Origin: a bacterium
GTDB taxonomy: Bacteria > Patescibacteriota > Microgenomatia > Daviesbacterales > UBA10151
DNA length: 64,000 bases
NCBI GenBank assembly: GCA_021786315.1
Contig: JAJYNN010000002.1
Location: forward strand, 100,160-164,159
Direction: 5' to 3'
Shown here: positions 29,755 through 60,600 of the stretch, one piece after another
Layout of the letters: the number at the start of each line of letters is the position of its first letter
How positions within the stretch are numbered: position 1 is the first letter of the stretch
Translations under genes and position numbers: made by a program
Notes under the pieces: generated by a model
Seen by the model: only the letters and a program-made list of their open reading frames with translations
Database searches by the model: none
What the model was told of the DNA's origin: nothing

Positions 29755-31644
29755 CTACTGGACTTCACTCCAGATTGTCAGGTCCCTGGCAAAAATATCC
29801 TTCAGAATAACCAAATATTTAGGCATGTAATTAATCTGTTCAGCCGGATCAGTATTATGTCCGTTGGAGCGGACAAACTGGGGAGGTTGGTTGGGGTTTA
29901 AAGAAATGACACTTCCGTTAATGGTTAATTGGGGAGCATTGGTACCTGCTGGGACGCAGTTGATGGAAATTAAATTACCGGTAGAGGCGCTACAGAAAGG
30001 TGTAGTAGTGCCGTTACCATAACTAATGAAGAACCCTTCGACTGGTTTAGCGCTCCCGCCCATATTTTTATCAATATAAACGGTGCCTTTGACAACAAAA
30101 ACCAGCCCTGAGGCTCCGCCGCCGTAGACGAATTTATTGCTGGGAGTATTAAGGAGTAAATTGCCATCCACAAAAATGACACCTGTTTTGGTATCGGTTG
30201 CCTGTAACTCGGAATTAACTGTTAGGTTTCCGGTGATATGGTAAAGCTGGTTGCTGCTACTCAAATCAAAAATCCGGTGAGCGTTGTCATAAGATCTATC
30301 TCCGGAGAGGGTGTTGCCTGCCGGGGGGGCGGGTTTGGCTTGGGAATAATAGAGCGAGAGAACCTCGTCGTAGCTGGGTATAGAAAATTGGGGGACGGAA
30401 GCGGGGTTGCCGATAAGGCATCTGGTTGAGGAGAAGTTGTTTTTCTTTGTTGAATCAACTAAAGATAAAAACCCGTTTCCGACTTGAATAGGGGTTGACC
30501 CGCTTGGACAGCTTGGGTCTTGAGGAGCTTGAAAAGGCACAAATGGAGTGGGAGTAGGGGTAGGGGTAGGGGTGGGAGTGGGAGTAGGGGTAGGGGTAGC
30601 ACAAACAGGAATAGAAAAAGAGTTGGAATTACTGTGGGTTCCGTTATAAAGCCTTACATAATAAGTGGCATTGGGTTGGAGGGAAGGGGAACTGCTAAAG
30701 CCGGTAGGGGCTGGGGTACTGCTGCTGCCTGAGACATTTTTATTCCAATAAGAGCTAAAGCTGCTGTTGCTGCTGATATCTGCCCAGCTAACGGGAACTC
30801 CCGGATTAGTCCAGGAGATAGTGACTTGACTCCCGGAGTAGGGTCCGGTGACACAGCTGACGTTTGTTCTAATTGATGGGGTTGGAGGAGCAATCAAAGA
30901 ATAAGAAAAGTTGTAACTGTTGTCTACGGACATATCATTACTGGGGGTAAGGCCACATCCGTCAGGGCTGGCATATTTGCCAGCAATCTGGCATTCGTAA
31001 CTTCTGTTTGGTCCGCCATAGCCGCTTAAAGAGGGGCTCCTCAGGCAGAAACCTAAACCGGCGTTAATGTTTGGGTAGCTGAAGTACCCGCTGGAGTTTG
31101 TTGTGGCCAGGCCAATATTGCACTGAGGCGGTGGCCAAGGGACCCCTGCCCTGAGTTCCGCCCCCTGGTTGATTACTACTCCCCCGATACCATTGCCGGT
31201 GACGGAGTCGGTAACTCTACCGGTTAAAGTTAGGCGGCAACCACTAATGGTTTTTGGTGATCCGCTGATTAGGGCATTATTACCGCTACCAATGTTAATA
31301 CCGTAAGCGTAGATATTGTGGGAGTTACCGTCCTTTAACCAGTCGGGAGTGGTAAAAGTGAAGCCGTGGGCACCGGTGCTTCCACAAACACCGGCATTCA
31401 CCAAATCCTGGCGGAAGATATTGGCTGTGGTTGCGCCTACCCAGGTATTGTTATCTGTGTAAAAGTGGACATCAATAGATTGGTTGTTATTGTCACCATC
31501 GCATGCCCAGCCGGCAAAGTTGGAACAATTGGCAGCGTCTAAATAACCATAAGGATCCGCAGCTAATGCTGGGGTAGGGGAAACGATAAAAAAAGCAGAA
31601 GCTAATATAAAAAATAGAAGTGGCAGAAAAAGGTCAATTTTCAT
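29755..31644 (-). CDS. secreted protein with (PT)n linker
   Basis: Signal peptide MKIDLFLPLLFFILASAFFIVSPTPALA. TPTPTPTPTPTPTPTPTP linker. Gly/Asn-rich beta-type C-terminal region. Confidence 0.55.
   Translation of the reverse strand: MKIDLFLPLLFFILASAFFIVSPTPALAADPYGYLDAANCSNFAGWACDGDNNNQSIDVHFYTDNNTWVGATTANIFRQDLVNAGVCGSTGAHGFTFTTPDWLKDGNSHNIYAYGINIGSGNNALISGSPKTISGCRLTLTGRVTDSVTGNGIGGVVINQGAELRAGVPWPPPQCNIGLATTNSSGYFSYPNINAGLGFCLRSPSLSGYGGPNRSYECQIAGKYASPDGCGLTPSNDMSVDNSYNFSYSLIAPPTPSIRTNVSCVTGPYSGSQVTISWTNPGVPVSWADISSNSSFSSYWNKNVSGSSSTPAPTGFSSSPSLQPNATYYVRLYNGTHSNSNSFSIPVCATPTPTPTPTPTPTPTPTPFVPFQAPQDPSCPSGSTPIQVGNGFLSLVDSTKKNNFSSTRCLIGNPASVPQFSIPSYDEVLSLYYSQAKPAPPAGNTLSGDRSYDNAHRIFDLSSSNQLYHITGNLTVNSELQATDTKTGVIFVDGNLLLNTPSNKFVYGGGASGLVFVVKGTVYIDKNMGGSAKPVEGFFISYGNGTTTPFCSASTGNLISINCVPAGTNAPQLTINGSVISLNPNQPPQFVRSNGHNTDPAEQINYMPKYLVILKDIFARDLTIWSEVQ
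30540..30600. repeat. simple repeat (ggggtaggggtaggggtgggagt...) encoding the PT linker
   Basis: A 6-nt periodic direct repeat is visible in the sequence. Confidence 0.7.
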
Positions 31645-31719: not shown

Positions 31720-32625
31720 TTATTGATTTGAATGGACATCTCCGCCTCTAACCTTTAAATAGGCCGGCATAGCTGTTGGGGTTGGGGTGGGTGTCGGGGT
31801 TGGAGTTGGGGTGGGTGTCAGAGTTGGGGTGGGTGTCGGGGTTGGAGTTGGGGTGGGAGCAATGATTTGGTAGGTTGTGGATTTGGAACACAGAGGTGAG
31901 CAATTACTGAAGCTGCCCTGGCAGACTTTCCAGGTATGAGTCCAGGTGTAAGTGCCGGTGATAGACGCCGTACAGGTGGTATTATTCCAAGATCCGCTGC
32001 AATTACTGACTCCCGGACGGGTATCGCCAATCCAGGTAGATGCATCACCGGTGATATTGAAGGTCATATTGCGCCCGGGAGTTTGCGTGTTGGGAGAAAC
32101 GGAGAGGGAAACCTGATTTGTGTTGCAACTAATGCTGGTGGGTTGGGGAGGAGGGCAATCTCCCGAATACCAGACAATAAACCCTTCGGGGATACCACAC
32201 GTCCAGGGACTTTGCCAGTTGCCGCCGTTGCGGCAATTATGGTCAAAGGAGTCAATTTGGTAAGTTCTGCCGCAGGTAGCTCCGGCAAAACTTTGTGAGG
32301 TGCTCCAACTGGATTCATGTTCAGTACAGTTGGTTTGTTTGCCGTTGCACCAATAGAGAACGGTGCTGTTGCCGGTTCCGGAGCGGCTCCAGCAGGTTCC
32401 GCTGCCGAGATTACAGGGAGCGGCACAACCCCCGTTGGCGTTATAGACACCGTTGTCGAAACCGTTGATGTTCCCGTCACCACCACTGCCGTCGTTGGTA
32501 AAACCACAAATTTTAGTGTAGTAGCCGCTACCGTAATTGGTGGTAGCGTAAACTACGCCGATTGAGGCCATCAGTATTAATACTGCCACAGGAATAGAAG
32601 CTAATTTAAAATACTTTTTTAACAT
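31720..32625 (-). CDS. secreted Cys-rich protein with C-terminal (PT)n tail
   Basis: Signal peptide MLKKYFKLASIPVAVLILMASIGVVYA. More than 20 Cys. PTPTPTPTPTPTLTPTPTPTPTPTPTPT. Confidence 0.5.
   Translation of the reverse strand: MLKKYFKLASIPVAVLILMASIGVVYATTNYGSGYYTKICGFTNDGSGGDGNINGFDNGVYNANGGCAAPCNLGSGTCWSRSGTGNSTVLYWCNGKQTNCTEHESSWSTSQSFAGATCGRTYQIDSFDHNCRNGGNWQSPWTCGIPEGFIVWYSGDCPPPQPTSISCNTNQVSLSVSPNTQTPGRNMTFNITGDASTWIGDTRPGVSNCSGSWNNTTCTASITGTYTWTHTWKVCQGSFSNCSPLCSKSTTYQIIAPTPTPTPTPTPTLTPTPTPTPTPTPTPTAMPAYLKVRGGDVHSNQ
31775..31862. repeat. simple repeat encoding the (PT)n tail
   Basis: ggggttggggtgggtgtcggggttggagttggggtgggtgtc... Confidence 0.7.
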
Positions 32626-32627
32626 TT

Positions 32628-33332
32628 TTAAAATCTAAACGTCTCCGGTGTAACTTTTGCCGGCTGCCAACTGACTCCGTTACTTATTTTATAGAGCATA
32701 AAAACAAAAGACTTATTATTAAATTCCGGAATAGGCAAACCGCTGGCAGTCGTGATCTCTTCGGCTGCTTTGACATCTCTTTCCTTAAACTGGACTTTGC
32801 CCCGGATATAATATGTAGCCTGAAGGCCTTTTTGGTTATCAGTTAAAGTCAGGATTGTCATATTGGGAACGTTTTTAAAGGCCGGAAGCTGTTCCAAAGT
32901 GCCATCAAAGGCAGCAAAGATCGGGGTCCCTTTGGCCAATTGCCCGGAAACGGAGCTTTCCCGGTACTCTCCTTTTTGGCAGAAATCAGGAAGAGATGGA
33001 CAAATAAACGGCCCTTTCTGTAAGTTTGCGTCATACCTGCCTGATGGTGTAGGTGCCGGGGTGGTAACTAATTGTTCAGAAGAGGACTTAATTTTAACAG
33101 TATAAAAATAATAAGCCCCTGCCAAAAGAAGCATCATAGAAGCTATTAAAATTAGGGCGGGTTTACTTAAGAAGCGGTTCTTCCCGTCGTTAACATTGTA
33201 ACTTTCAACAACCGGAGGGGTAGGGGGTAGGGATTGAGAAGTGGTATCAGAAGGGACAGGTTGCGGATCCACCTCTTTATGATAGCCATGTCTATGGGTA
33301 TTTTTCAAGTGTTTGGGCGCAGTTTTACTCAT
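32628..33332 (-). CDS. membrane-anchored hypothetical protein (first gene of secreted-protein operon)
   Basis: Single TM helix (ALILIASMMLLLAGAYYFYTV) followed by a periplasmic domain. Confidence 0.45.
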   Translation of the reverse strand: MSKTAPKHLKNTHRHGYHKEVDPQPVPSDTTSQSLPPTPPVVESYNVNDGKNRFLSKPALILIASMMLLLAGAYYFYTVKIKSSSEQLVTTPAPTPSGRYDANLQKGPFICPSLPDFCQKGEYRESSVSGQLAKGTPIFAAFDGTLEQLPAFKNVPNMTILTLTDNQKGLQATYYIRGKVQFKERDVKAAEEITTASGLPIPEFNNKSFVFMLYKISNGVSWQPAKVTPETFRF

Positions 33333-34883: not shown

Positions 34884-36341
<1,458 letters not shown>

Positions 36342-41875: not shown

Positions 41876-42895
41876 ATGCAAGTGGTTTCTGCCCAGCTTG
41901 TTTCCGGCAAAAAAGTTTTAATCAGACTTGATATTGACGTTCCGATCGGAGTGTCGGAGCATCAGAGTGTCAGTGGGTCAGAAAAAGGCAAGTTGGTGGT
42001 TTTGGATGATTTTAGGTTGAAGGCTGGATTAGGTACTTTAAAGTTGTGTTTAGAAAATGCTTCGGAGGTTATAGTGATGGGACATCTTGGCCGGCCGAAA
42101 GGGGAGGACAAAAAACTTTCCGTAGCTCCGATTTATACCTGGCTGGAGAACCAAGGTTTTGCCGGTGACCTGGAAAGCGGAAAGCTGCAGCTTTTGGAAA
42201 ACCTCAGATTTGAGGAAGGGGAAGATAGCTGTGACCTCAATTATGCCAAAGAGTTGGCTGCATTAGGTGAGATATATATAAATGAAGCTTTCGCTGCCCA
42301 CCATCCGGCGGCCTCAACTACAGTTTTGCCGACACTTTTACCCCATGCGGCAGGATTACGCTTTGCTGAGGAAGTGAAGACTTTATCTGAAATCCAGGAC
42401 AACCCCCAAAGGCCGCTCATCGCTGTTGTCGGAGGCGCCAAGATAGAAGACAAATTACCGGCAGTAAGAGTTTTATCTAAAATTGCTGATGTGGTGTTAG
42501 TTGGAGGCAAGATATCCCAGGAGCTGGAAAAAGACCCGGGGATTTTAAAAGAATTAGGGGAGGGGGTAGTCTTGGGCGAGCTGAATAAAGATAAAACGGA
42601 TCTCACCCCTGAAACGATCCAGGTTTGGAAAGAGATTATCCTGCACCATTCAAAATCGGTAATCTGGAACGGCCCTTTGGGGAAAATAGAGGATCCTCAA
42701 AATAACCAAAGCAAGTATCTGGCAGAAGCTATTATCGAATCGGGAGCAAAAAGTGTTGTTGGCGGCGGAGATACTGTATCAGCGCTTGATAAATGGAATC
42801 TTTTGGATAAATTCAATTTTGTTTCAACTGGCGGAGGAGCAATGCTGGAATTTTTAACAGAGGGAACTTTACCTGCAATTGAAGCTCTTTCTTAA
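41876..42895 (+). CDS. pgk: phosphoglycerate kinase (short form, with in-frame repeat insertion near N-terminus)
   Basis: GHLGRPKG, VVGGGDTVSALDKW and STGGGAMLEFLTEG motifs. Confidence 0.85.
   Translation: MQVVSAQLVSGKKVLIRLDIDVPIGVSEHQSVSGSEKGKLVVLDDFRLKAGLGTLKLCLENASEVIVMGHLGRPKGEDKKLSVAPIYTWLENQGFAGDLESGKLQLLENLRFEEGEDSCDLNYAKELAALGEIYINEAFAAHHPAASTTVLPTLLPHAAGLRFAEEVKTLSEIQDNPQRPLIAVVGGAKIEDKLPAVRVLSKIADVVLVGGKISQELEKDPGILKELGEGVVLGELNKDKTDLTPETIQVWKEIILHHSKSVIWNGPLGKIEDPQNNQSKYLAEAIIESGAKSVVGGGDTVSALDKWNLLDKFNFVSTGGGAMLEFLTEGTLPAIEALS
41947..41988. repeat. GC-rich repeat (core GAGTGTCRG) copy inside pgk, in frame
   Basis: cggagtgtcggagcatcagagtgtcagtgggtcagaaaaa encodes GVSEHQSVSGSEK, which is absent from canonical PGK N-termini. 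Confidence 0.65.
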
Positions 42896-42935
42896 ATTGA
42901 CATCTCCCCAAAATCCATCTAATCTGGATATATCG

Positions 42936-45200
42936 ATGCAAAGATATTCCGAACGCGGTGTTGCCCATATTTTTGCCTTAATTCTGCTTCTTGTAGGAAT
43001 TGCTGTCGGGGTTTACCTGATACAAAACCCGCAGTTCCTCAATTCCTTTGCCGGTAATCCTCCGATTGTTATTAAAGGGGCGGATGGCAGCCAGCTGTCT
43101 CCAAACAAGGACGGTGTTCCCTCGACCGCTTCCACAAAAATTGTGGTGGAACTTAACTCTCCTCTGGGGCCGGCGGGGGTAAAAACTGATACTACTTTAC
43201 AGGCATCTCCGTCACCTACAGTCAATTATTCATTAACTGGTCTGAAGAAAGCTTATGGCGCCAAAAGAGGCCAGCCCAAATATGACCCCCAATACGATTT
43301 AAATAATGACGGAGTGATCAATATCATCGATTTTGCCCTCTTAATTCCCAAGCTTCAAAGCAAGCCGGAACCAAAAACCAAACCCCAAACGACGACGGTT
43401 TCTTACAGGCTGACCGAGGATGCCTTAAATATTAATCAGCTGCCGTTTGTTCCCTATACCGCTGATCCGATGGTGGTAAATTACGAATTCAGGGATAAAA
43501 AACCGGGCAAAAAGTTTATCTGGGTGGATTTCCAGGATTCCAAAGGCAAGATCCAGCGCCGCTCAACTCCGGTAGAAATTACCGCTCCGGCAGTGCCGGC
43601 ATCGGCTTGCGGAGCCGACCTTTCCTATACCTGTACTTCTTCCGGAAACCGTCTGACTGTCAACTGGAGCTTAAAAAATAAATACGGAGGCAATAGCTGT
43701 AATATTTTTCTTAAGGACAGCAGGGGGGACCATCAGATAAACGGCTCAAACTATGCCGGCCCTTGTTCGGGGTCGTGGTCGGACACTTCCCTAGACGGCA
43801 GAACCGTCAGTATCGGGGATCGCTACCAGCTTTTCGTCAGCAACGGTGACCCTGCCGGAGGGTGTTACAACCAGCAAAAAGGGGACACCACCTTGGTTTG
43901 TGTGACCCCCACCGCCACCCCAACCCCAATTCCGACTGCCGTCCCCGATCAAGGCGGTTTTGAGGTAGGGCTGGAGGCGGGTGAGCAACACGACACCAGC
44001 CGGGTCAACCTGGTGGCCGAGAGCGGAGCTAAGTGGGTGAGATTGAATTTTGTGGGCTCGAATTGGGCAGCCGGTTCTTCCGACGTCAATACTTACAACA
44101 ACATTATTAATGCCTACCGCAATAAAAATATTAAGATTATTGGCTTAATTGGTATTCAATCGGTTTCGGGGGGGTATGACAGGAACCATCCGGAAAACTT
44201 CACCCAAAAGTTTACTGATACGGCTTCTGATATTGTGGCCCGCTTTGGGGACAGGGTAAAAGTTTATGAACTATTTAACGAGCCGAATGATTGGGCCGGG
44301 GGATCGAGTTCCCAGGTTCCGGAAAAGTACTTTGCCACTTATCTTGCCAGCATTTACCAAAGGATTAAAATTGACCAGGGGAGAGGGGACATTTTCCTAA
44401 ACTCCGGGCCGCTTTTTTCCTTTGATTTAAACAACGGCTCCAGCTATCTGCAAAATACCTACAATGAAGGTAAAAACTTGAGTGGTTCCTTAAACTGGAA
44501 TACTATCAAGTCTAAGACCGGGAGCTATCCTTTGGATGGGGTAGGTTACCATATCTACGTGGCCCAGGGTGGTGGAGACCAATCCCAGGTTGAGACTAAA
44601 GTTAAAGCAAACCTGGATTCCATTAAGAGTGTCTTAAACCGGGTGGATAGCGGCAAAAAGATGTGGATTACCGAATTTGGGTGGGGAACAGGATTAGGGG
44701 GCATGAATGAAACTATTCAGGCTTCGAACCTAGAAAAGGCTTATTCTGTCTTTAAAAACTACCCGGCGGTAAGAATGGCGATGTGGTTTACCCTCCAGGA
44801 TTTTGACGGCAGTAAGTGGGGCCTCGTAAAAGGTGACGGCGGGAAAAAATCGGCCTGGTACGCTTTCCAGAGAGCGGGAAGCAACACCAATACGTGTTCG
44901 GCCAGCATAGATTATAGCTGTAGCGTTTCAGATAATAAGTTAAATGTCAGCTGGAACTTAACTAACAAATATGGAGGTAATAGCTGTAATATCTATATCA
45001 AGGATAACCGGGGGGATCATCAGATAAACGGCTCAAACTACAGCGGGCCGTGTTCCGGCAGCTGGTCAAGCAATACTTTGGACGGCAGCGCAGTTTCTGG
45101 AGGCGGGCGTTACCAGCTTTTTGTCAGCAACGGCGACCCTTCAGGCGGGTGCTATAATCAACCCAGAGGAGATGTTACTTTAAATTGTAACTACCAATAG
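42936..45200 (+). CDS. secreted glycoside hydrolase (GH5-like) with dockerin-like motif and duplicated Cys-rich flanking modules
   Basis: TM/signal segment HIFALILLLVGIAVGVYL. Dockerin-like DLNNDGVINIIDFALLI. Catalytic-type YELFNEPN and WITEFGWG motifs. Two copies of about 100 aa reading C..SY.C...N.L.V.W.L.NKYGGNSCNI..KD.RGDHQINGSNY.GPCSGSW. Confidence 0.55.
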   Translation: MQRYSERGVAHIFALILLLVGIAVGVYLIQNPQFLNSFAGNPPIVIKGADGSQLSPNKDGVPSTASTKIVVELNSPLGPAGVKTDTTLQASPSPTVNYSLTGLKKAYGAKRGQPKYDPQYDLNNDGVINIIDFALLIPKLQSKPEPKTKPQTTTVSYRLTEDALNINQLPFVPYTADPMVVNYEFRDKKPGKKFIWVDFQDSKGKIQRRSTPVEITAPAVPASACGADLSYTCTSSGNRLTVNWSLKNKYGGNSCNIFLKDSRGDHQINGSNYAGPCSGSWSDTSLDGRTVSIGDRYQLFVSNGDPAGGCYNQQKGDTTLVCVTPTATPTPIPTAVPDQGGFEVGLEAGEQHDTSRVNLVAESGAKWVRLNFVGSNWAAGSSDVNTYNNIINAYRNKNIKIIGLIGIQSVSGGYDRNHPENFTQKFTDTASDIVARFGDRVKVYELFNEPNDWAGGSSSQVPEKYFATYLASIYQRIKIDQGRGDIFLNSGPLFSFDLNNGSSYLQNTYNEGKNLSGSLNWNTIKSKTGSYPLDGVGYHIYVAQGGGDQSQVETKVKANLDSIKSVLNRVDSGKKMWITEFGWGTGLGGMNETIQASNLEKAYSVFKNYPAVRMAMWFTLQDFDGSKWGLVKGDGGKKSAWYAFQRAGSNTNTCSASIDYSCSVSDNKLNVSWNLTNKYGGNSCNIYIKDNRGDHQINGSNYSGPCSGSWSSNTLDGSAVSGGGRYQLFVSNGDPSGGCYNQPRGDVTLNCNYQ

Positions 45201-45201
45201 T

Positions 45202-45795
45202 ATGAGTTTGGTGGAAACTAATATTTACCTCTTTGTCATGGCCACGGTTCTGGCCGTCTTGGAGATCCAGATAGAAGGGGAACACGGCTGGGCGAAAAAT
45301 TTGCCTACCTGGAGGCCGAAAAACCCCACCTGGTACTCAAAAACCTACCAGAGAGTTATGAGCGGGAAAGAGATGACCGGGTATCACCTTTCCATGTTTG
45401 GCTTTGTACTTCTAATCCTTTGTTTGCCCTTTGTTTTTGGGCTGCCCCTAACGCTGGGGAATGCCTTAAGGATTGCTATCTTTTACTTCCTGTTTTCGGC
45501 GATGTGGGACTTTTTGTGGTTTGTCTTAAACCCTTATTATCCATTGAAAAAGTTTAAGGCTGAGTACCTTTCCTTTCACCACAAAAGCTGGCTTTTAGGC
45601 GTACCCACTGACTATTGGGGAGCCTTAATTCTGACTTTAATCCTCTCGGTACTTGGCCAATTTGTTTTGCATATGCCCAATTTGGTAGCCTGGTGGGGGA
45701 CAAACGTAGCTTTATTCCTATTCCAGGTATTCTTGATGATCCTCTTTTCTTTATATGTTTTAAAGATTGATAATTGGCATCCCTCTAAAAAATAA
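45202..45795 (+). CDS. hypothetical membrane protein
   Basis: 197 aa with 4-5 TM segments. Confidence 0.4.
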   Translation: MSLVETNIYLFVMATVLAVLEIQIEGEHGWAKNLPTWRPKNPTWYSKTYQRVMSGKEMTGYHLSMFGFVLLILCLPFVFGLPLTLGNALRIAIFYFLFSAMWDFLWFVLNPYYPLKKFKAEYLSFHHKSWLLGVPTDYWGALILTLILSVLGQFVLHMPNLVAWWGTNVALFLFQVFLMILFSLYVLKIDNWHPSKK

Positions 45796-46068
45796 GACTC
45801 TTTATTTGATTTCCCCTAGAGGTTGTGGTACTACATGCATATGACTGTTGAAAGTAGAGAGAATCATACATCTGAGGATACATCCAGTGATGAACATTTA
45901 AAACTAGGAATGGAGCTGTTGGGGTTAATTACTGCGGCTACTATTATAGCCGGATTATTAGGCAGTAGTGATGATGGGGCTGTAAGTGCTGTAAGACAAT
46001 ATTTCTTTGATAATTTATCCCGAATATTTCATTGACATCACTGCATTGTGCAAGTTACGATAGGTTTA

Positions 46069-47124
46069 ATGCTCAAAGTTGCCATTAATGGCTTTGGCCG
46101 GATTGGCCGGGCCGCCTTTAAGATTGCTTTAGAAAAGTTTCCCCAGGAGGTTGAAGTTGTGGCCATCAACGATTTAACCGATCCTCACATTTTAGCCCAT
46201 CTTCTCCAATTCGACAGCGCCTTTGGCCGCTGGGATAAAGAGGTTTTTGCAGACGATAATTCCATTACAGTTGATGGTAAACAATACCCAATATTTGCTG
46301 AAAAGGTCCCTGCAAACATCCGATGGGGCGATATAGGGGCGGAAATTGTCATTGAAAGTACCGGGAAATTTGTCGACGAGGAGGGGATGAAACAGCATCT
46401 TTTAGGGGGAGCAAAGAAGGTGGTTCTTTCTGCGCCTTGCAAGACCGGCAATGTTCCAACTTATATTATTGGAGTTAACCACTTCCGCTACCAGGGTGAA
46501 CCGCTAATTAATAACGGATCCTGTACCACCAACTGTGTGGCCCCGATTGCCGCCATTATGGATGAAAAGTTTGGGGTTTTAAAGGCTTTGATGACCACTA
46601 CCCATGCAGTCACGGCGGAACAAAACTTGGTTGACGGCCCGCCTCCGGGAGGCAAATCTCAGGATCTCCGCCGGGCCCGGGCAGCCTATACCAACATTAT
46701 TCCCACTACCACCGGGGCGGCGGTGGCTACCACTGAAGCTATCCCGACTTTAAAAGGACTTTTTGATGGCCGGGCCTTAAGGGTTCCGGTAATTGACGGC
46801 TCGATTACTGACTTTACTTTCCTGGTAAAAAAGAAAACCACAGTTGAGGAAGTTAATCAGGCCTTTAAAGATGCGGCGGGGGGAGAGAGGTGGCAGGGGA
46901 TTATTACCTGGAGTGACGATTCGTTAGTCTCCTCGGATATTATCGGCAAAAGTGAGTCGGCCATAGTTGATTTGCCTTTAACCCAGGTAGTTGACGGGGA
47001 CTTAATCAAGATTTTGGCTTGGTATGACAACGAATGGGGCTATTCCAACAGGCTAGTGGAACAGGTAATAAATATTGGGAAGGTTAAAGATACTCCATTA
47101 TCAGCTCCAGCCACTCCTGATTGA
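46069..47124 (+). CDS. gap: glyceraldehyde-3-phosphate dehydrogenase
   Basis: MLKVAINGFGRIGR, active-site SCTTNCVAP and WYDNEWGYS. Start set at the second Met; the longer ORF begins at 46048. Confidence 0.9.
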   Translation: MLKVAINGFGRIGRAAFKIALEKFPQEVEVVAINDLTDPHILAHLLQFDSAFGRWDKEVFADDNSITVDGKQYPIFAEKVPANIRWGDIGAEIVIESTGKFVDEEGMKQHLLGGAKKVVLSAPCKTGNVPTYIIGVNHFRYQGEPLINNGSCTTNCVAPIAAIMDEKFGVLKALMTTTHAVTAEQNLVDGPPPGGKSQDLRRARAAYTNIIPTTTGAAVATTEAIPTLKGLFDGRALRVPVIDGSITDFTFLVKKKTTVEEVNQAFKDAAGGERWQGIITWSDDSLVSSDIIGKSESAIVDLPLTQVVDGDLIKILAWYDNEWGYSNRLVEQVINIGKVKDTPLSAPATPD

Positions 47125-47566: not shown

Positions 47567-48072
47567 TAGCCAAAAGATACTCAACAAAAAGGCATACGGT
47601 GAATGCCTTGGTCGAAAGTACCGATGAAGGACGTACTAGGCGACGATACTCTGCGAGGAGCTGCCAAGAAGCTTTGATCCGCAGGTTTCCGAATGGAGCA
47701 ATCCACTCTGGTTAATCCCAGAGGACCCATAAGTAAATACATAGCTTATGGGAGGGCACGCGCTGAACTGAAACATCTAAGTAAGCGCAGGAAGAGAAAT
47801 CAATTAGAGATTCCCCCAGTAGCGGCGAGCGAAAAGGGAAGAGCCCAAACCACGCATCACCTTAGGCAGCAATGCTTAAGACGCGTGGGGTTGTAGGACT
47901 GACAGTAGCGAGTAGCGAGGATAGCTGAAGACTCTGGAAAGAGTTGCCAAAGAGGGTGATAGCCCTGTAAGCGAAATCCAAACTGCCGTGGTCAGATTCC
48001 TGAGTACCCTAGGACACGTGTAATCCTGGGTGAATCTACGTCGACCATGACGTAAGGCTAAATATACTTTCG

Positions 48073-48112
<40 letters not shown>

Positions 48113-48845
48113 AAGAGCGGAACGCTCAGTGAAATAGTACCTGAAACCGTATGTTGACAAGCTGTGGAACTCGCGATTTATCGCGAGAACCGCGTGCCTA
48201 TTGAAGAATGAGCCGGTGAGTTACTTTGCATTCCAAGTTTAAGTGCCGTAAGGCGCGAAGGCGTAGTGAAAGCGAGCCTGAATGAGCGAAAGCTCCTGTC
48301 TTTGACAGTAGGGCGTTTAGGAGTGCACAGTAGACCCGAAACCGTGTGAGCTATCCATGTCCAGGGTGAACTTCTGCGAAAGCAGGAGGGAGGCCCGAAC
48401 CCGTTACTGTAGCAATAGTTTGGGATGAGATGTGGTTAGAGGTGATATGCCTAACGAACACGGAGATAGCTGGTTCTCCCCGAAATATATCTAGGTATAG
48501 CCCTGTGCAAGTTTGTAGGGGGTAGAGCTCTGGCTGGAACTAGGTGGCGCAAGCTATCTATTCCAATCAAACTTCAAATACTTACAAACGTAGCAGGAGT
48601 CAGTCCGATCCGGCTAAGCGGAGCGGGCTCGAGGGAAACATCCCGAACCGACAGTTAAGGTCCCTAAATACAGACTAAGTGTTAAAGGATGTAAAGTTCC
48701 TTAGACAGCCAGGAAGTTGGCTTAGAAGCAGCCATCTTTTAAAGAAAGCGTAACAGCTCGCTGGTCTACTACGGAATTTTGCGCCGACAATGAATCGGGG
48801 CTCAAGTCTGTTACCGAAACTACGGGTGCTTGTCCGTTGGACAAG

Positions 48846-48963
48846 AATTTTCAAGTACCAATTACCAATTTACAATGAATTTTCAATGACCAAATGTTTT
48901 AAACATTTGAAAATTTAGACATTGAGATTTGTTTGAAAATTGAAAATTGAAAATTGGAATTTC
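48846..48963. repeat. AT-rich repeat insertion within 23S rRNA (between ...GTCCGTTGGACAAG and TCGTCCTTCGGACGAG...)
   Basis: gaaaattgaaaattgaaaattgg repeats plus the palindrome caaatgttttaaacatttg interrupt an otherwise conserved 23S helix. Confidence 0.6.
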
Positions 48964-49794
48964 TCGTCCTTCGGACGAGTGCGGTAGGGGAGCGTTCTGG
49001 AGGGAGTGAAGCTCATGGTGTAAACCAGGGTGGACCGTCCAGAAGTGAGAATGCCGGTATGAGTAACGAAATTCCAGTGAGAAACTGGAACACCGAAAGC
49101 CCAAGGTTTCCGATCCAATGTTAATCAGGGTCGGGTTAATCGGCACCTAAGACGAGGCCAGATGGCGTAGTCGATGGAAGACCCGTCAAAATTCGGGTAT
49201 TAGGCTTTTCTGATAAAAACTTTACGGGTGGACAAAGTGGGAATAACCCAGTCCTCTATATGGGGATTTAAGCAACGAATTAGTGGGTGTAGGAAAATCC
49301 GCACCAGCTTTCCAAGAACGACTTAAGTCACTTATGTGGCTTAAGCTATCTTAAGTGATTTATCGTTTAAGGGAGCTAATCACGTTTGAAGTGAGTTGCG
49401 ACGACGTAAGTGGGTGATTTTCTGTTTTCAGGAAAAGACTCGTAAAGGAGAAAAGTTATAGCCGTACCATAAACCGACACAGGTGGGCGAGTTGAGTATA
49501 CACAGGTGATCGAGAGAACTATCCTTAAGGAACTCGGCAATACAGCTGGACGTAAGTTAGCAAGATGTCCCGCCCTAGACCGCAAGGTTGTGGGGTTGCA
49601 ACAAAAGACGCTGAGCGACTGTTTAACAAAAACACAGGTCCGTGCCAAAGCGAAAGCTGATGTATACGGGCTGACACCTGCCCAGTGCCAGTAATTTAAA
49701 ACTGTCTTTGACTCCTTGGAGCAATCCTTGGACGAGGAGGTGGTCTAAGATCTGGTGAACGGCAGCAGTAACTATAACTGTTCTATGGTAAGAT

Positions 49795-50443
49795 TCGTTG
49801 CCTTAGAAGGTGGTGTGTTTTGGATAATTCTGCTATATGCTGGAAAATCTGAGAATCCGGTGCTACTATGGTGTAATCTTCCCATAGATATGCCGAGTAA
49901 CAATGTATCCGGTGCAGAAAATCAGCAGGAAAGACTTAAGATTTGTGGCTGGATAGTTGGTTTTACTGATGGGGAAGGGTGTTTTTCCGTTTCCATCTTT
50001 AAAAACAGGACAACCAAGAGCGGATTTCAGGTAATGCCTGAATTTGTGATTACCCAAGGTCAAAAAAGTTTGAGCTCCTTAGAGCTTGTTAAAAACTTCT
50101 TTGGTTGTGGCGCTATTTATGTAAATAGACGCCACGATAATCACACGGAGAATATCTACCGCTATTGCGTCCGTTCAATTAAAGATTTGCAGGAGAAAAT
50201 AATACCTTTTTTCAAAGAAAATCAGCTAAGAACCAGCAAAAAAGAGGACTTTAACTTATTTTGTAGGGCAGTGGAGATGGTTTTAAATCGTCAACACTTA
50301 ACCGCAGAAGGTTTAAAGATTCTTCAAGATCTTAAGAATCCTCAGAAACCACACGCAGAACCCTGAAATTTCAGGGAAGATATGGTTCGAACTATGTGGC
50401 GACACATAGGATTTAGATCAAAGGAAGTCTAATAATAAAATGT
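49795..50443 (+). mobile_element. group-I-type intron in 23S rRNA (inserted in the GGTAAG|GCGAAATTCC region, E. coli ~1917-1931 equivalent). Boundaries are approximate.
   Basis: Exon sequence GTAACTATAACTGTTCTATGGTAAG resumes at GCGAAATTCCTTGTC after about 650 nt that contain a LAGLIDADG ORF. Confidence 0.6.
49890..50366 (+). CDS. LAGLIDADG homing endonuclease (intron-encoded)
   Basis: ICGWIVGFTDGEGCFSVSI matches the LAGLIDADG motif, with a second half-motif LVKNFFGCGAIYVN. Start set at the internal Met because the upstream part of the ORF is 23S exon. Confidence 0.65.
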   Translation: MPSNNVSGAENQQERLKICGWIVGFTDGEGCFSVSIFKNRTTKSGFQVMPEFVITQGQKSLSSLELVKNFFGCGAIYVNRRHDNHTENIYRYCVRSIKDLQEKIIPFFKENQLRTSKKEDFNLFCRAVEMVLNRQHLTAEGLKILQDLKNPQKPHAEP

Positions 50444-50914
50444 TGAGCGAAATTCCTTGTCTGGTGAGTTCAGACCCGCACGAAAGGTAGAACGACTTAG
50501 CGACTGTCTTGAGGATAGACTCGGTGAAATTGCAGTGGCTGTGAAGATGCGGCCTTCCCATACTTGGACAAAAAGACCCCGTGGAGCTTTACTGCAGCTT
50601 GGCCCTGATTTGAAAACTTAACTGTGTAGTGTAGGAGGGAGATTCGTCGTCAATGAAACACCTCTCTTTTAAGTTTTTAAGTCTCAACCTTAGCCATAAA
50701 CTGGCAAGGCGACAAGGTCTGGCGGGCAGTTTAACTGGGACGGTTTCCTCCAAAAACGTAACGGAGGAGTACAAAGGTGCACTTAGATCGGATGGCAATC
50801 GATCGTAAAGCGTAAAAGTAAAGAGTGCGCTTGACTGTGAGACCTACAAGTCGAGCAGGTGCGAAAGCAGGTTTTAGTGATCCCTACTTACCTCATGGGA
50901 GGGAGTAGGCTTAT

Positions 50915-50948
<34 letters not shown>

Positions 50949-51223
50949 GATACCCAACAGTCCACAAGGACGGTATCGTTCGGCACCTCGATGTCGGCTC
51001 ATCGCAGCGTGGGGCTGTAGAAGGTCCCAAGCGTCTGGCTGTTCGCCAGTTAAAGCGGTACGCGAGCTGGGTTCAAACCGTCGTAAGACAGGTTGGACTC
51101 TATCCAGTATGGGCGTTTGAAACTTGAGGGGAGTTATCTTTAGTACGAGAGGACCGAGATGAGGAAACCTCTAGTGTGCCAGTTGTCCCAAAAGGGCAGC
51201 GCTGGGTAGCTACGTTTCTTTAT

Positions 51224-51254
<31 letters not shown>

Positions 51255-51424
51255 AGACCCCAAGATTAGGTTTCTTTATTAGACCCCTGGAAGACTACCA
51301 GGTTGATAGGTTGCCGGTGTAAGCATAGCAATGTGTTTAGCCTAGCAATACTAATGGTCAAAGTTGAGATTTTTTGGCTTGAAGCCTTTAGAAGTCGTAT
51401 TCACATTTTGAAGTAGCAAAGAAA

Positions 51425-51683: not shown

Positions 51684-52262
51684 ATGTCTGCTCGAAACCG
51701 TGGTTTTACTCTGATAAGTCTACTTTTGCGACGCAAAAGATCTTGTCAAGGTTTCACCTTGATTGAACTCTTAGTTGTTATTTGTATTGTGGCAATCCTT
51801 GGTACCGTTGCTTTATTGGTTTATACCAATACTTTAAAAAGTGCCAGAATGGCAAAGAGAATTGGGGATTTGCAAAGTATTAATACGGCAATTGAATTGT
51901 ACCGGGATGAGAACAATCATTACCCAATTGCTACTAATTGGCGCTCTGAGTGTGCCAAAGGTGGTAATTTAAACCCCGATGATGTTGTCCCCGGATTAGT
52001 CCCTAAATATACCCGGATATTTCCTTCTGATCCCTTAATGGTTAAAAACACCAACTCTTCCTGTTATATGTATATCTCCAATGAAGATGGATCGGGATAT
52101 AAACTTTTGGATTATCAAATCAGTGAATTTACCCCCGCTGATTACTTAAAGGAGAGGGGGCTAATAGATCCGGCCCGGGATGGGGGATCGGATCCCTGCA
52201 AGGTGGACGGAGATTCACCGGAGGCCTGGGGTTTTTATACCTATAATGCCTGTGCCCTTTAA
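51684..52262 (+). CDS. type IV pilin / pseudopilin-like protein (prepilin N-terminal domain)
   Basis: QGFTLIELLVVICIVAILG matches the class III signal G|FTLIE. An upstream partial duplicate GFTLISLLL is present. Confidence 0.6.
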   Translation: MSARNRGFTLISLLLRRKRSCQGFTLIELLVVICIVAILGTVALLVYTNTLKSARMAKRIGDLQSINTAIELYRDENNHYPIATNWRSECAKGGNLNPDDVVPGLVPKYTRIFPSDPLMVKNTNSSCYMYISNEDGSGYKLLDYQISEFTPADYLKERGLIDPARDGGSDPCKVDGDSPEAWGFYTYNACAL

Positions 52263-52375: not shown

Positions 52376-52493
52376 GTCCGGTGATTTGAGCGGTGCGGAA
52401 CCACCCTTTCCCATTCCGAACAGGGTCGTGAAACACACCAGCGCAGACGATACTAGGGTCGAAAGGCCTCGGGACAATATGTCATTGCCGGGA
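52376..52493 (+). rRNA. rrf: 5S ribosomal RNA (3' boundary uncertain; a duplicated 3'-end segment follows)
   Basis: TGTCCGGTGATTTGAGCGGTGCGGAACCACCC...CCCATTCCGAACAGGGTCGTGAAAC aligns with the bacterial 5S 5' half. GTCATTGCCGGGA occurs at 52481 and again at 52569. Confidence 0.5.
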
Positions 52494-54647: not shown

Positions 54648-54682
54648 ATTTTATAACTTAAAATTTAAAATTTAGATTTATC
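54648..54682. repeat. AT-rich repeat, inverted partner of 54243-54275
   Basis: cttaaaatttaaaatttagatttatc. Confidence 0.55.
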
Positions 54683-57600
54683 ATGGTTTACTGTCCACGA
54701 TCCACCAGTCGAAGGTGATGTCCTGGGCTTGGGCCTGGTTAAGCTGGACTGTAAATGACTGGCCAACACTCTTGGAGGAAACACCCAGGGTTACCGGCTG
54801 GTGGGGGGTGAGGAAGATCCTGGAAGTGGCGGTAACCTGGTCGGTATTTACAATCAGGGTTGTTTGTCCGGCAGGGATAGTGGCAGTGGACAAAGTTTGG
54901 GAGGAGACCTCTACTTTTTGAACACTTATCTTACCCGTATTGTCGATTTGGGCTTTCCCATTGAAGAAATCAACCAGCGTTGCCAACGGTGAATTCTGGA
55001 TAAACAAGGCGCCGATGGAGTTGACGGAGTTGCCGGTCAAAGACATTGTTCCGTCAACTGTGAAATCGCCGGCAATAGTGGTGCTGGCCAAAGAGGTAGT
55101 ACCCAAAGATTTGAAGGTATCGGAGATTGTCGCCTGGTAGGCGGTCAGTTGTCCGGAGATTGTTGCCTCGGAAGCCACTGAAAGGTTAGCCAAAACAGCG
55201 GAACCGGTGGCCAGCAGCACATCCGGGGAGGTCAGCTTTAAGTTATCGACATCGGATTGGACTTTGGCCAATTGGGCGGAAGTTGAGGCCAGCTGAGCGG
55301 AGTTGGAAGCCAACTGGGCAGAAGTGGAAGCAATTTGGGCCGAGGAGGAAGCAATTTGGGCTGATAACACATCCGCTTGGGCTTGAACCGCGGCCAGTTG
55401 GGTATCAATGGTCTTTAAGGTGGAAGCTACCTCAATATAGTTGGTTCCTGCCTGGTACTGGATGGCGGAAGTGGAGGCAACCGGCTGGCCGGAAGCAGTT
55501 AAGCCTGAGGAATCCAGGGAGTTGTCGGCCACCTTAAGTTCGCCTGAAATGGTCGCTTCACTGGTGACTGCAATCTGGTCTACCTTAAGAGACGGGGTTT
55601 GCAGTGACCCATTGGTATTGACACTTAAGTTGAAGCTGGAGACTTGGGCCACGTAGCTGTTAATCTCATCCTGTTGTTCTTTAACTGAATTAATAAGCCC
55701 AAAAGTCAAGGCTCCGTAGTTTACCTCTTTCACCTGGGTTAGAGTTGTATCGGTCGGATAAAGTTGTACCTCCCTGGTGCTTACAAGTTGGGGCGCCACC
55801 TGTTCTACCTGCTGGGCAATAAGACCTGATTTGATATTCCCGTCGTCAAGCGTTCCCCCAAGGCCGTTGTATTGGAAAGTTACGGGGTTGAGGCCGAGTA
55901 TTTCTTTCAGGCCGAGGTTAACGGGATTAATGTTCTTTTTCAGCCTGATATCAGATAAACAGGCTCCTAATGTCCCGCCGTTGTAAGTAAGGCATCCCTG
56001 GATGGATCCATTTCCTGCAGAATCTACGATAAACCGATTTGTGCCGTTTATTTGCATGATAATTTGTCCGCTGGCATTTCCATTGGCTATATACCAAAGA
56101 CTTCTTTCTGTTCCAATGCCGGCACCGTTTACCCTGGTTTCACCCTGAGAGTCATGGACAACAAGCGGCGCTACTGCATTCGGCATTGTTGTTCCGATAT
56201 AAACATTTCCGGAGGCATAAGCATTTCCGCTGACGTTAAGGCCGGCGGAATTTACTACGCCATTCTTTTGTACTGTGAACGGGTAAGAGTTCCAGGCGGC
56301 GTTACCGAGGGTAATGGCGTTATACGTTGGATTAGTGTCATTGCCGGGCTGGATGCGGATAATATCTGTTCCGGTGTTGTTGTAGGCATAAAGGGATGTT
56401 GCCCTGGCTGTTCCGGCTACATCTAGTGCAGTTCCCGGAGTTCCTACTCCGATACCTACACCTCCTGTGCCGCCACTGGTTTGGAGTAACAAATAGCCTG
56501 CACCTTTTGAATCAAGCATAAGGTTATTGGTTGCATTGGTACCACTCTCATAAATATGGTTATATCCAATGTTTACTGATTGGGTTGAATTAAGGGGCAG
56601 GACTGATAAGTAAGCTTCAGTCCCATTAGTTGGGCTTTGAATTGTCAGTACTGATCCCGGATTGGTAGTCCCAATACCCACATTACCTGAGTTTTTGAAT
56701 GTTACCTTATCTGACCACCCTCCGCCATCTGTACGGATTGCGACGTCATTGCCGTTACCCAGTATTTTTGTTACTCCACCTTCTATACCAAATTGAGCAT
56801 ACTTAGTTGCATTATTAGAATCATGTAACCGGATCCAGTTATCTCCAGTAAAGGACAAATCTAGTTTGTAGCCTGGACTAGTTGTCCCGATACCCACATT
56901 GCCCCCGGCAGCTATTGTCATCTTGATTGAATCATTGGTTCCGATATTGACAGGGTGGTTGCTGTAAGTCCAAAGATTCATGGCTCCTGGGCCCAGTCCG
57001 TCAGTACCGCCGTTAAGAGACAGGTATCCATTAATTGTGCCGGTGGTACTATAGAGGTGCATTTGCGAGTACTGGCTGGTTGGACCCTGGACATAAATGG
57101 CATCGTTTGAATCCACAGATGACCGGGTTGTTCCTCCAAACATAGCAAGTCCGTTAACATTAAATTTGACCAGAGGGCTCGTTGTTCCAATACCCACATT
57201 CCCGGTAAAGTAGGAGTTGCCACTGCCGCTAACAGCCAGTGTCCCGCCGACGGTTAAATTACCGGAGTTAGATAGGGACATAATCGCGTTATCCAGATTT
57301 CCGGCTGTCCCATCCACCCAGCGGAAGCCTGCGCTGGAAGTTTCACCGCTGACAAATGATAACCAGTCAGCCCTGTTGCTGTATACACCTATAAATGGTG
57401 TGCCCCAACTGGAAGTGGGGAATTTGATATAGTTCAGGTTATCAACCCTGATATTCCCATTAACTTCCAGCTTCTCTCCAGGACTGGTTGTCCCAATACC
57501 CACATTGCCAGCAAATGAGCTGCTGCCTGACCCTTGAACTGTAAGTGTACCAAGTAAAGTTGCATTTCCTTGAGTTCCGGCATTGTAATCAGTGCTGACA

Positions 57601-60600
57601 CTAAATACAGTTGATTGTGAACTACCGTTATTCCCCCGGAATTGAATCTTAGTTCCGCTACCATAAACTCCATTATCAAGATCCAAGTAATTAGAGCTAT
57701 CAAAGGTTAATACGTTTCGGGCGATAGCATCTGATCCTTTCCACTGAATGGGTTGGTTATTATCAAGTAGCAAAGCCCCTCCTACAACCTGAAGCTTAGT
57801 TGTGGGACTTGTTGTCCCGATACCAACATTACCATTGGTAAGTCTCATTACCTCGGCCGAGTTGGCTTTAAGCGCTAGGGCTGTATTGTTATTGCCGATA
57901 TCACCAATACCAATTGGCCCTCCTCCGGGGAAGTTAAGGACACCTCCGCCGTTGACGTTGAGTTGGGTGCTAGCATTGATGGTCCCCTTGACATCCAAGG
58001 CAACCTGAGGACTGGTTGTCCCAATACCCACATTGCCGCTGCTGGTAATTCTAAGCCGTTCATGTTGGCTATTATCTTGGTCTACATTAAAAGACATAAA
58101 TGTATCTATATTGGAACCGGTTCCCCAATCAGCAGCCTCTTTTCCTACTCTTATCCATGCCCCGTTTAGTTGTCTTGTATCGGGCGAAAACTGAATTCCT
58201 GCTGTCTGAGTGGTGGTGTTGGATTGGTCTGAATTAGCTATACGGATACCACTAACATTGCCTGTTGCTGTATTGGTTATATCGAGAAATTGTCCCGGAC
58301 TGGTTGTCCCAATACCCACATTGCCGCTGATATACATTTGAGGATCCGCATTGTAGGCAGTGGTAACTTTGAAGTAGCCGTTGCCGGAAGATCCGGTGGC
58401 GGAGATTAAATTACCCGTATTGGCTGAGGAAAGAACGATGTTGGCTCCCGTATTTGTTCCGGCGCCGGTAGCAATATACAAACCGCTCATATTGCCGCTG
58501 CCCGGACCACTTATCCTAAGCGCATAACCGGAAGAGTTGTTGCCCAGGATATCTAATACCGCTCCCGGGCTGGTTGTGCCTATACCTACATTACCGTTAC
58601 CCTGAACAAGAAACTTTGTGTCGGGAGTTCCGTCTGCATCAACTGTCAGTTTTAGGAGATTAAAGGCTGAGCTGGCTGTTCTGTAGGCTTCGCCTCGGAT
58701 CAGGTCGCTGGCAAATGCCGAGCCGTCAGTAGCAATTACCTGTAGTCCGGGATTACCTTGCCCACTAAACACAGAGATCAAAGGAGCAACAGAGATGGTG
58801 GAAGGCTCCGTAGTTTGGGTAGTGGCAATTAAACTCTTACCGGCTGAGTCATAGAAGTTACTTGTACCCACCACATCTAATTTGTAACTTGGGTTGGTTG
58901 TCCCGATACCCACATTGCCGTTTGTATCTACCCTCATTCTTTCTGCAGCCACTCCACCGTTGTTTGTATTGAAGATAAGGTTTGAGATACCGGAACTATA
59001 TCCGATATTAAGGTTTGATCCGTTAAGTTCAAGCGAACCAATTTCCGCTAGCCTTAGTAGTCCGCTGCCTCCGGAAGTTCCCACATTGATGATGTCGTTG
59101 CCCCGTACATCAAGCGTGTAGGTTGGGTTGGTTGTCCCGATACCCACACTACCACCTGTTTTGATATACATACTAGCAGAGGTACCTTCTTTAAATTGCA
59201 TATCTTTACCTGAAGCGGTAATGAGAGTGGTAATATCGCTGGTATCTTTTCCAAGTAGAGCCCTGATAGTCCCGCCACTATCTTTAGCTCCGTAGTAATT
59301 TCCATTAGCTATAACTAAAGAGTTGGCGTCAGCTCCTCCGGTAGCCAGTTCCAGTTTGGCCAAGGGTGCAGTTGTGCCTATACCTACATTACCTGATTTA
59401 ATAATCCTGATCCTATCCTGAAGACTTGAACCATCTGTTAAGGATAAAGAGATATATGGTTCATCAGGAACAGCTCCAGTTGGCCTTCCGTAGGCTTTAA
59501 ACTGAGCCATAGCGGTACCGCTGGAACTAAAATTAATTGTTTTTGGCGATTCGCCATAATCATTATCAATAGTTAAAGTTGTGCCTGATGTAGTAGCGGC
59601 TCCTTTTAGGTGTAGTAGGCTTGTTGGTGCAGTTGTGCCTATACCCACATTACCACCAGATTTAATAATCATGTTAGTAACTGTTCCTCCGCCTCCACCC
59701 TGGAAATAAACATCATTTGCAAAATCTCTTCCGAAATAGATTGGGTTACTACTTGGATTATCGATGTTAAATCCATTACTCCAAGCCCTAAATCTACCTT
59801 GATCTACATCGGAATTGTTAGCAACAAATACGTCACCTCTATTTACTCTTAGGGCAGAAACTCCTGAGGTGCCCAATACTTGCAAATTTGAATTCGGTCC
59901 AGTTGTCCCAATACCCACATTCCCATATCTATCGATAACCATTCTGGGAGAGGGTGTAGTCAGGCCAGTGGCAAGGACAATATCCCTATTGTAGGTAGTA
60001 ACCCGGGGCTGGATAATGAGATTCCCGCTTTCTGCAAAAGGATAACTTGAACCGTTACCAGCTGAGTTATAAATCAAAGGAGCAACACTGGTGTTGTATG
60101 AGCTGGTGGAACCAGTTAGCTGAAGGTAACCATTAGCATTTATATTCCCATTTACATCAAGATTGTATCCCGGATTAGTTGTACCAATACCTACATTCCC
60201 GTTGTCCATGATGACAAATTTATCAACGCTATTGTTGTCCTGGGTGCGGAAAGTAAAGCCTGTGGTGGTGCCGGCACCCTTAACTTGTAACTTGGCAGTT
60301 GCATCACCTGAACCGGCACCGCCTACCATTACATTGTTGGCTGAGCCAATGGAGATTGCCCCCTGGTTGCTGGAGGCGGTGTAGGTGAGGTTTAATCCAT
60401 AACCGTTGGTAAAAATATCACCCCGTTGGGTAGTATTATCGATAAAGACTATCTGGGAGCTGTCGCTTGTGCTGGCTGAGTTGATAGTGATTCGGGGATC
60501 ACTGCCCTTTAGGAGTATCCCGGCATTTCTATTAGCGTTTACTACATGAAGAGTATCAGTAGGACTGGTTGTCCCAATACCTACATTACCAGCTGAGGTT

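Follow-up and report, generated by a model that had tools for sequence, protein, structure and literature searches.

The gene at positions 42936-45200 of the 64-kb window (the whole analysed stretch of 64,000 nucleotides) probably encodes an exported, multi-modular retaining β-glycoside hydrolase (GH) of the Candidate Phyla Radiation (CPR)/Patescibacteria (Microgenomates), with its additional modules acting as accessories and with scavenging as its role. The catalytic domain is a barrel of clan GH-A and lies between two copies of a Cys-rich module of about 100 residues. This module represents a new family of accessory domains, which is rare and outside Pfam. In the N-terminal part, a cassette also seen on other secreted proteins contains a single dockerin-like repeat.

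The region is a single open reading frame (ORF) on the plus strand with an ATG start at 42936, encoding 754 residues. Public gene calls agree on this product (P0001), which is recorded on a contig of 942,606 bp, and an alternative longer ORF with a TTG start at 42879 runs into the 3' end of the phosphoglycerate kinase (PGK) gene. The translation places YELFNEPN and WITEFGWG, the core motifs quoted in an earlier note on this DNA, at residues 444-451 and 577-584, and the dockerin-type motif DLNNDGVINIIDFALLI at residues 121-137. The same note described two modules of about 100 residues with the same Cys spacing on both sides of the core, and this description is correct. The cysteines are located at 225, 233, 255, 277, 310, and 322 in copy 1 and at 654, 662, 684, 706, 739, and 751 in copy 2, giving a spacing of 8, 22, 22, 33, and 12 in both; all 12 Cys residues of the protein are inside the two modules. 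The copies align without a gap, with 69 identities in 99 residues (70%; BLASTP E = 7e-53). Judged from the sequences, this duplication is far beyond chance. At the DNA level the identity is 68%, and the codon differences comprise 34 synonymous and 29 non-synonymous ones. The Nei-Gojobori method (NG86) gave a dN of 0.23 and a dS of about 4, which is saturated (ratio of about 0.06); therefore, the duplication is old, and both copies are under purifying selection. In an hmmsearch of the six-frame translation of the window, the Cys module was found in this gene alone. The D.N.DG....D loop likewise occurs once in the whole window.

The full-length model by AlphaFold2 (AF2) contains the catalytic domain as a (β/α)8 barrel with a predicted local distance difference test (pLDDT) score of about 90. 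E449 is just past the β4 strand, and E580 is within the β7 strand. The barrel fold, the Glu of the N-E-P motif ending β4, and the second Glu ending β7 are the features of clan GH-A. Alignment of 33 homologues, the most distant of them at 28% identity, shows no variation at R369, N371, E445, N448, E449, H539, Y541, and E580; W617 is kept only among close relatives. The active site of GH5 has Arg in β2, Asn-Glu in β4, His/Tyr in β6, Glu in β7, and Trp in β8, and a tentative matching of R369, N448, E449, H539, Y541, and E580 to GH5 positions was made by motif and strand order.

The closest solved structure, by both fold and profile, is an atypical GH39 enzyme (5jvk), with GH1, GH5, and GH128 near behind. 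The values of the fold search were 25.9 for 5jvk (20% identity), about 24 for GH1 enzymes, 22.1 for PslG (GH39), 21.7 for the GH5 enzyme TmCel5A, and 20.0 for GH128. The corresponding E values of the family profile were 3.9e-6 for 5jvk, 3e-5 for GH1, 6.8e-5 for TmCel5A, and 4.6e-3 for GH128; PslG was absent from the profile matches listed. PF01229 (GH39) gave no match in the Pfam scans of the window protein or its relatives, though the nearest solved relative belongs to GH39. Both PF11790 (Glyco_hydro_cc) and the GH5 model match relatives of the catalytic domain, and the Pfam cut-off of PF00150 (GH5; 23.5 bits) was reached by five of 11 relatives, including the ortholog P0002 (23.8 bits, marginal) and the more distant P0012 (38.2 bits). 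Matches of the window protein to DUF5722 and GH1 were weak. From these results, the domain is a retaining clan GH-A glycosidase whose family is placed between GH39, GH1, and GH5. Its closest match among named genomes is from a Candidatus Daviesbacteria metagenome-assembled genome (MAG; Microgenomates group, Patescibacteria), at 65% identity. This match and the arrangement of the rRNA genes suggest that the window comes from the same group. The family is also present in Myxococcota, Sumerlaeota, Armatimonadota, Anaerolineae/Chloroflexota, and Omnitrophota.

The structure of the Cys module, which the earlier note had proposed to predict, was modelled by AF2 from an alignment of 40 sequences. The model is a seven-strand sandwich with a pLDDT of 91.9, and its best fold matches are FN3/Ig-like domains. 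The agreement with FN3 is in fold alone: no fn3 match (PF00041) was obtained in the 40 copies, and hhalign against FN3-10 of fibronectin and FN3-3 of tenascin gave probabilities of at most 1%. Pfam gave no significant match for any of the 40 copies, and the PDB sequence search with the family profile returned nothing better than an E value of 0.4. An exhaustive HMMER search over 1.84 billion (1.84e9) representative proteins found the module in only 37 proteins (clusters) at E ≤ 1e-3, 16 at E ≤ 1e-10, and two at E ≤ 1e-30. A scan of GTDB genomes and JGI metagenomes yielded no confirmed relative.

In the 40-copy alignment, W24, C35, C57, and G84 are invariant, and C13, N36, Y77, L79, S82, N83, C90, N92, and C102 are nearly so. 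Loss of Cys residues in natural variants occurs in pairs: P0049 lacks the first and fifth, and P0053 lacks the second and sixth, while the third and fourth are present in 40 of 40 copies. Together with the parallel arrangement of the A and G strands, these paired losses suggest a C1-C5, C2-C6, and C3-C4 pairing. The predicted disulfide bonds would thus be 225-310, 233-322, and 255-277 in copy 1, and 654-739, 662-751, and 684-706 in copy 2. It should be added that the window contains a membrane-anchored DsbA/thioredoxin-like protein (15043-15786, plus strand; PF13462, 113 bits), which is a candidate for the oxidase that forms the disulfides in the modules and in other Cys-rich secreted proteins. 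Its presence is consistent with extracytoplasmic disulfide formation.

The N-terminal cassette (42936-43580, residues 1-215) begins with a hydrophobic helix. The small-x-Ala motif conserved after this helix resembles a signal peptidase I site by the -3/-1 rule, and the secretion proposed in the earlier note accordingly holds in the form of a probably exported clan GH-A enzyme. The helix together with the Q..Q..F..[KR]A pattern is also present in P0002, P0003, P0009-P0013, P0017, and many module-bearing proteins. The small β module that closes the cassette recurs in P0002, P0003, P0017, P0054, and many Cys-module proteins. As a whole, the cassette is outside Pfam and heads otherwise unrelated secreted proteins (P0003, P0017, P0054, P0022, P0037, and P0048). 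Its patterns are Q..Q.[FIL]..[KR]A, 'P[IV]VFK...V[RK]VELTSPLGP', and, over about 65 residues, '[YF]R[IVL][AT]E...Y....Y.F.D..PG.K.IWV.F.D..G'. A search with the N-terminal 221 residues gave a single match, P0054.

On this basis, the following mechanism is the most probable one. The protein would be exported and, after probable cleavage, held near the cell by a stalk made of the leader, the dockerin-like repeat, and the β module; the cassette, which is reused on other surface proteins, probably keeps the enzyme there. Judged from its fold and invariant residues, the barrel would hydrolyse a β-linked polysaccharide outside the cell by double displacement, retaining the configuration; E449, where β4 ends, would serve as the acid/base and E580, where β7 ends, as the nucleophile. 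Copy 1 of the Cys module is carried on a flexible Pro/Thr tether, and copy 2 is joined to the final barrel helix almost directly. The two modules may be oxidation-stabilised accessories by which the barrel is oriented, and possibly retained, on a substrate that is polymeric or part of a cell surface. As the organism has minimal biosynthesis, the most likely role of the enzyme is to scavenge sugar from glycans that are external or belong to a host surface.

Several observations weigh against this mechanism. Neither the window protein nor its isolated catalytic domain matched PF00150 at E ≤ 1, and the match to PF11790 (GH128; cut-off of 21 bits) was marginal: the whole protein scored 20.4 bits and the catalytic domain by itself 23.2 bits, at partial coverage. 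The core had been called GH5-like in the earlier note. The GH-A barrel and the relatives passing PF00150 agree with that name, but the window protein has no PF00150 match and the GH39 structure is nearer; the name is fair as an approximation, not as membership. The substrate could not be assigned from the Pfam scores or from the neighbourhoods of homologues: those of the distant ones (Anaerolineae loci L021 and L036) contain housekeeping genes only and offer no clue. In the full-length AF2 model, made from a shallow alignment, the modules have low confidence and their packing on the barrel is undefined. The disulfide pairing is based on two natural variants and topology, not on coordinates. 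Signal-peptide cleavage and surface retention are inferred, and direct glycan binding by the modules is possible but unproven.

The closest ortholog, P0002, is 60% identical and has the same synteny. It carries only the N-terminal copy of the Cys module and stops just past the barrel. The two copies in the window protein are 70% identical to each other, and 64% and 60% identical to the copy in P0002. This closer mutual relationship and the lack of a C-terminal copy in P0002 indicate that the C-terminal copy is a lineage-specific addition.

The alternative that survives best is that the Cys modules form a new family of carbohydrate-binding modules (CBMs), the two copies giving avidity for the substrate of the barrel and targeting a host or environmental glycan. 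This seems possible, but we consider it rather doubtful. The closest copies of the module all sit in GH-A enzymes, namely the window protein, P0002, and P0018. In P0018 (locus L045, 731-3067), two tandem modules follow the HPY of the β6 strand; that is, they are inserted in the β6-α6 loop on the catalytic face. The barrel of P0018 is only distantly related to that of the window protein (hhalign probability 92%, E 7e-7), and the protein ends in a complete dockerin. P0018 is therefore a second, topologically distinct fusion of the module to a glycosidase, and these two modes of attachment to GH-A barrels are also new. Strong purifying selection on both copies in the window protein and an additional aromatic-containing loop (INGSNY[AS]GP) in the GH-linked subfamily point in the same direction. 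The β-sandwich is, moreover, the commonest fold of CBMs.

These points have to be set against the wider distribution of the module. Among 35 other module-bearing proteins, the partner domains are dockerin (seven), TIG (four), subtilase (two), and fn3, TSP1, SdrD_B, and Big (one each), and many of the proteins contain no catalytic domain recognised by Pfam, nor any domain of a carbohydrate-active enzyme. This range argues for a general extracellular building block over a dedicated CBM. The module fits none of the described CBM families by sequence or fold membership and has no sequence relative in Pfam or the PDB; the carbohydrate-binding type assigned to it in the earlier note is not upheld. 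In P0002 a single copy suffices. In bacterial glycosidases, FN3-like modules often serve as spacers or as structural hubs. A more specific proposal is that the module is a CPR-specific CBM family on surface enzymes, flanking the barrel or inserted in the catalytic face, that latches onto a particular host or environmental glycan and, together with the shared N-terminal cassette, marks a lineage-specific toolkit of surface enzymes. We regard it as slightly less probable still. Apart from this question, P0024, P0026, P0027, P0030, P0032, P0038, and P0040 are smaller secreted proteins composed of a common Cys-rich N-terminus, one Cys module, and a C-terminal tail of the type 'F.P.VDWLS.WF'. The patterns of their N-terminal region are 'PGQKRYEC...AGYGIP.IC...GNW.V.N.G..ECS' and 'CIYS...CY.GTG..GFN...C.YSCGPV.CP'.

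The gene order around the glycosidase is GH18, S11 DD-carboxypeptidase, methyltransferase, PGK, this gene, a 197-residue membrane protein, and glyceraldehyde-3-phosphate dehydrogenase (GAPDH). Consequently, the glycosidase and the membrane protein lie between the glycolytic genes pgk and gap (41876-47124 of the window). Locus L002 of the ortholog retains this order, with an extra GH39-like/discoidin/dockerin gene in front. The 197-residue protein has no match in Pfam; a 66%-identical homologue is found at the same place in L002-L004, and there is no counterpart beside the GH homologues of other phyla. An ORF of equal length downstream of P0019 in locus L043 was compared with it and is unrelated. 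A scan for promoters and terminators around the gene gave counts at or below the shuffled expectation and is uninformative on operon structure.

This neighbourhood bears on a second alternative, in which the enzyme trims or remodels the envelope polysaccharide or exopolysaccharide of its own cell, like PslG (GH39) of Pseudomonas. The conserved S11 DD-carboxypeptidase and GH18 neighbours fit such a role, as do the PMT-type glycosyltransferases and DUF2298 in the same window. However, the position between pgk and gap is outside any polysaccharide-synthesis operon, homologues in other phyla are located among unrelated housekeeping genes, and full dockerins together with additional putative glycosidase domains, which are typical of scavenging enzymes, occur in close relatives. 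A role in the cell's own envelope is thus unlikely, and scavenging of external glycans is preferred.

The dockerin-like motif noted N-terminal to the core does contain a Ca-binding loop. In DLNNDGVINIID, the canonical ligands occupy positions 1, 3, 5, 9, and 12 (D1, N3, D5, N9, and D12), and the ortholog P0002 has DLNKNNIINIVD in its place. The type I dockerin is defined by two Ca repeats of about 22 residues and at least 22.9 bits in PF00404 (Dockerin_1); here there is one repeat, and residues 120-141 scored 21.2 bits, below this Pfam cut-off, over profile positions 2-23 of 57. The segment upstream of the repeat has no acidic loop. In the best PDB alignments, residues 100-144 are placed on the second repeat of solved dockerins (5k39_B, E 0.01), and the segment has a pLDDT below 50 in the AF2 model. 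Close relatives of the catalytic domain have complete two-repeat dockerins at their C-termini. A cohesin partner, which the earlier note suggested looking for, was not detected in the 64-kb window of the ~0.94-Mb genome, either in a phmmer search of all six-frame ORFs that used a cohesin as query or in a Pfam scan of 17 ORFs. The architecture had also been called unexpected in a reduced genome, a view that does not stand: earlier work on CPR/Patescibacteria had already described dockerin, cohesin, and GH proteins (PMC10633639; bioRxiv 10.1101/2021.08.21.457207), and expression of cohesin and dockerin has been reported for a Microgenomates MAG (bioRxiv 10.1101/2021.08.21.457207).

Participation of the protein in a cellulosome-like assembly, with the motif binding a cohesin scaffold on the surface, is quite improbable: the loop and helix are kept in the ortholog, and the dockerins of the relatives, the reported expression in the MAG, and a membrane-anchored cohesin two genes downstream of a module-bearing protein in L043 speak for it, but the dockerin fold requires two repeats, the one present is below the cut-off and poorly modelled, and the window has no detected cohesin. 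Two observations on cohesins in other proteins may be recorded here. In L043 (6001-9860; GCA_964372495.1, CAYJQU010000003.1), P0019 contains a pair of Cys modules, a TIG domain, and, recognised by eye, a dockerin-like segment at the C-terminus, and the cohesin two genes past it (228 residues; PF00963) has a C-terminal membrane anchor; the two might be a dockerin-cohesin pair for surface display. P0009, P0012, and P0013, which are relatives of the glycosidase, have a dockerin at the C-terminus and an N-terminal region of about 170 residues that is cohesin-like in a one-target phmmer search against the L043 cohesin (E 2.5e-7) and is not called by Pfam.

Features of the gene and of the surrounding window
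Feature	Position in the window	Strand	Remarks
Whole gene, exported (predicted) modular glycoside hydrolase, 754 aa	42936..45200	+	ORF list, translation, identical public gene call P0001; stop codon 45198-45200
Hydrophobic helix, aa 7-30, then Q..Q.L.SFA/G	42954..43052	+	AF2 helix; probably Sec signal peptide with S-x-A site (slash), alternatively signal anchor
Leader hairpin, aa 41-80, PPIVIKGADG...KIVVELNSPLGP	43056..43175	+	pLDDT 80-90; common to P0002, P0003, P0017, P0054; no Pfam match
Single dockerin-like repeat, aa 100-141	43233..43358	+	Ca loop DLNNDGVINIID at aa 121-132, then helix FALLI; first repeat absent
Small β module, aa 151-215, VSYRLTED...FIWVDFQDSKGK...	43386..43580	+	pLDDT ~90, five strands; no Pfam match
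Cys module copy 1, aa 221-325	43596..43910	+	Family hidden Markov model (HMM) 109.6 bits; followed by Pro/Thr linker aa 323-339
Clan GH-A (β/α)8 catalytic domain, aa 340-648	43953..44879	+	Putative acid/base E449 (FNEPN), putative nucleophile E580 (ITEFGW)
Cys module copy 2, aa 650-754	44883..45197	+	Family HMM 112.9 bits; linker of ~6 residues to barrel; forms the C-terminus
197-aa multi-pass membrane protein	45202..45795	+	Starts 1 nt past the GH stop codon; possibly co-transcribed
16S rRNA	34884-36338		
23S rRNA	47576-51374		Spans 3.8 kb, against a 2.9-kb model
LAGLIDADG homing-endonuclease ORF inside 23S	49755-50366		
5S rRNA	52377-52493		

Several other features of the window were observed. 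The 16S and 23S rRNA genes are unlinked, with about 11 kb of protein-coding genes between them, the glycosidase gene included. The excess length of the 23S gene and the LAGLIDADG ORF in it make an intron-like insertion likely. A 192-residue ORF (51684-52262, plus strand) that matches the N-terminal methylation motif of type IV pilins (PF07963, 39.9 bits) lies between the end of 23S and 5S, an unusual site for a protein gene. A 3021-residue ORF on the minus strand (54681-63746) has Peptidase_S74, an endosialidase-type intramolecular chaperone, as its sole Pfam match (residues 2598-2655), which points to a surface protein of the fibre or spike type that processes itself. Three adjacent ORFs on the minus strand (29755-31644, 31720-32625, and 32628-33332) have hydrophobic or signal-like N-termini and lack Pfam matches, and the first two open with Cys-/Gly-rich sequence; their products are probably surface proteins as well, again unclassified. 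Also on the minus strand, a DUF2298 membrane protein and two PMT-type (dolichyl-phosphate-mannose protein mannosyltransferase-like) proteins are encoded at 19246-21372, 24226-26016, and 25994-27676, suggesting glycosylation of the envelope or of proteins. That the Pro/Thr linkers of the glycosidase are targets of such glycosylation is speculation.

Most surface proteins of the CPR/Patescibacteria, bacteria that rely on other cells or external polymers, have no annotation. The present gene yields a new, clearly delimited and confidently modelled extracellular domain family of about 100 residues with three inferred disulfide bonds, a poorly classified GH-A family, and a reusable N-terminal cassette. 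Glycan binding, if it occurs, would make the Cys module a new CBM family as well as a clue to the targets of attachment and feeding; if it does not occur, the protein is simply another modular secreted glycosidase.

The overall architecture, an exported GH-A glycosidase with β-sandwich accessories and dockerin-type elements, is of an already known kind, and the differences from known systems are in its parts. The structure 5jvk is attributed in PMC7242879 to an atypical GH39 of Bacteroides cellulosilyticus WH2 (Ali-Ahmad et al. 2017). The window protein is 20% identical to 5jvk; from this structure and from further GH39 enzymes, for example PslG (4zn2), it differs in not matching PF01229 and in its accessory modules. 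The GH5 cellulase/mannanase family (PF00150; Thermotoga maritima Cel5A, 3amc) is likewise not the nearest by fold or profile. The dockerin-like repeat resembles the type I dockerin in having a 12-residue EF-hand-like Ca loop with an amphipathic helix after it; however, it is single, sub-cut-off, poorly modelled, and located internally towards the N-terminus instead of at the C-terminus. The Cys module has no sequence relationship with the FN3-like accessory ('X') modules of bacterial GHs, such as the Fn3 domain of the cellulosomal CtXyl5A (5g56). It also differs from classical FN3 in its six conserved Cys residues, which are absent there, and in its occurrence in only 37 clusters.

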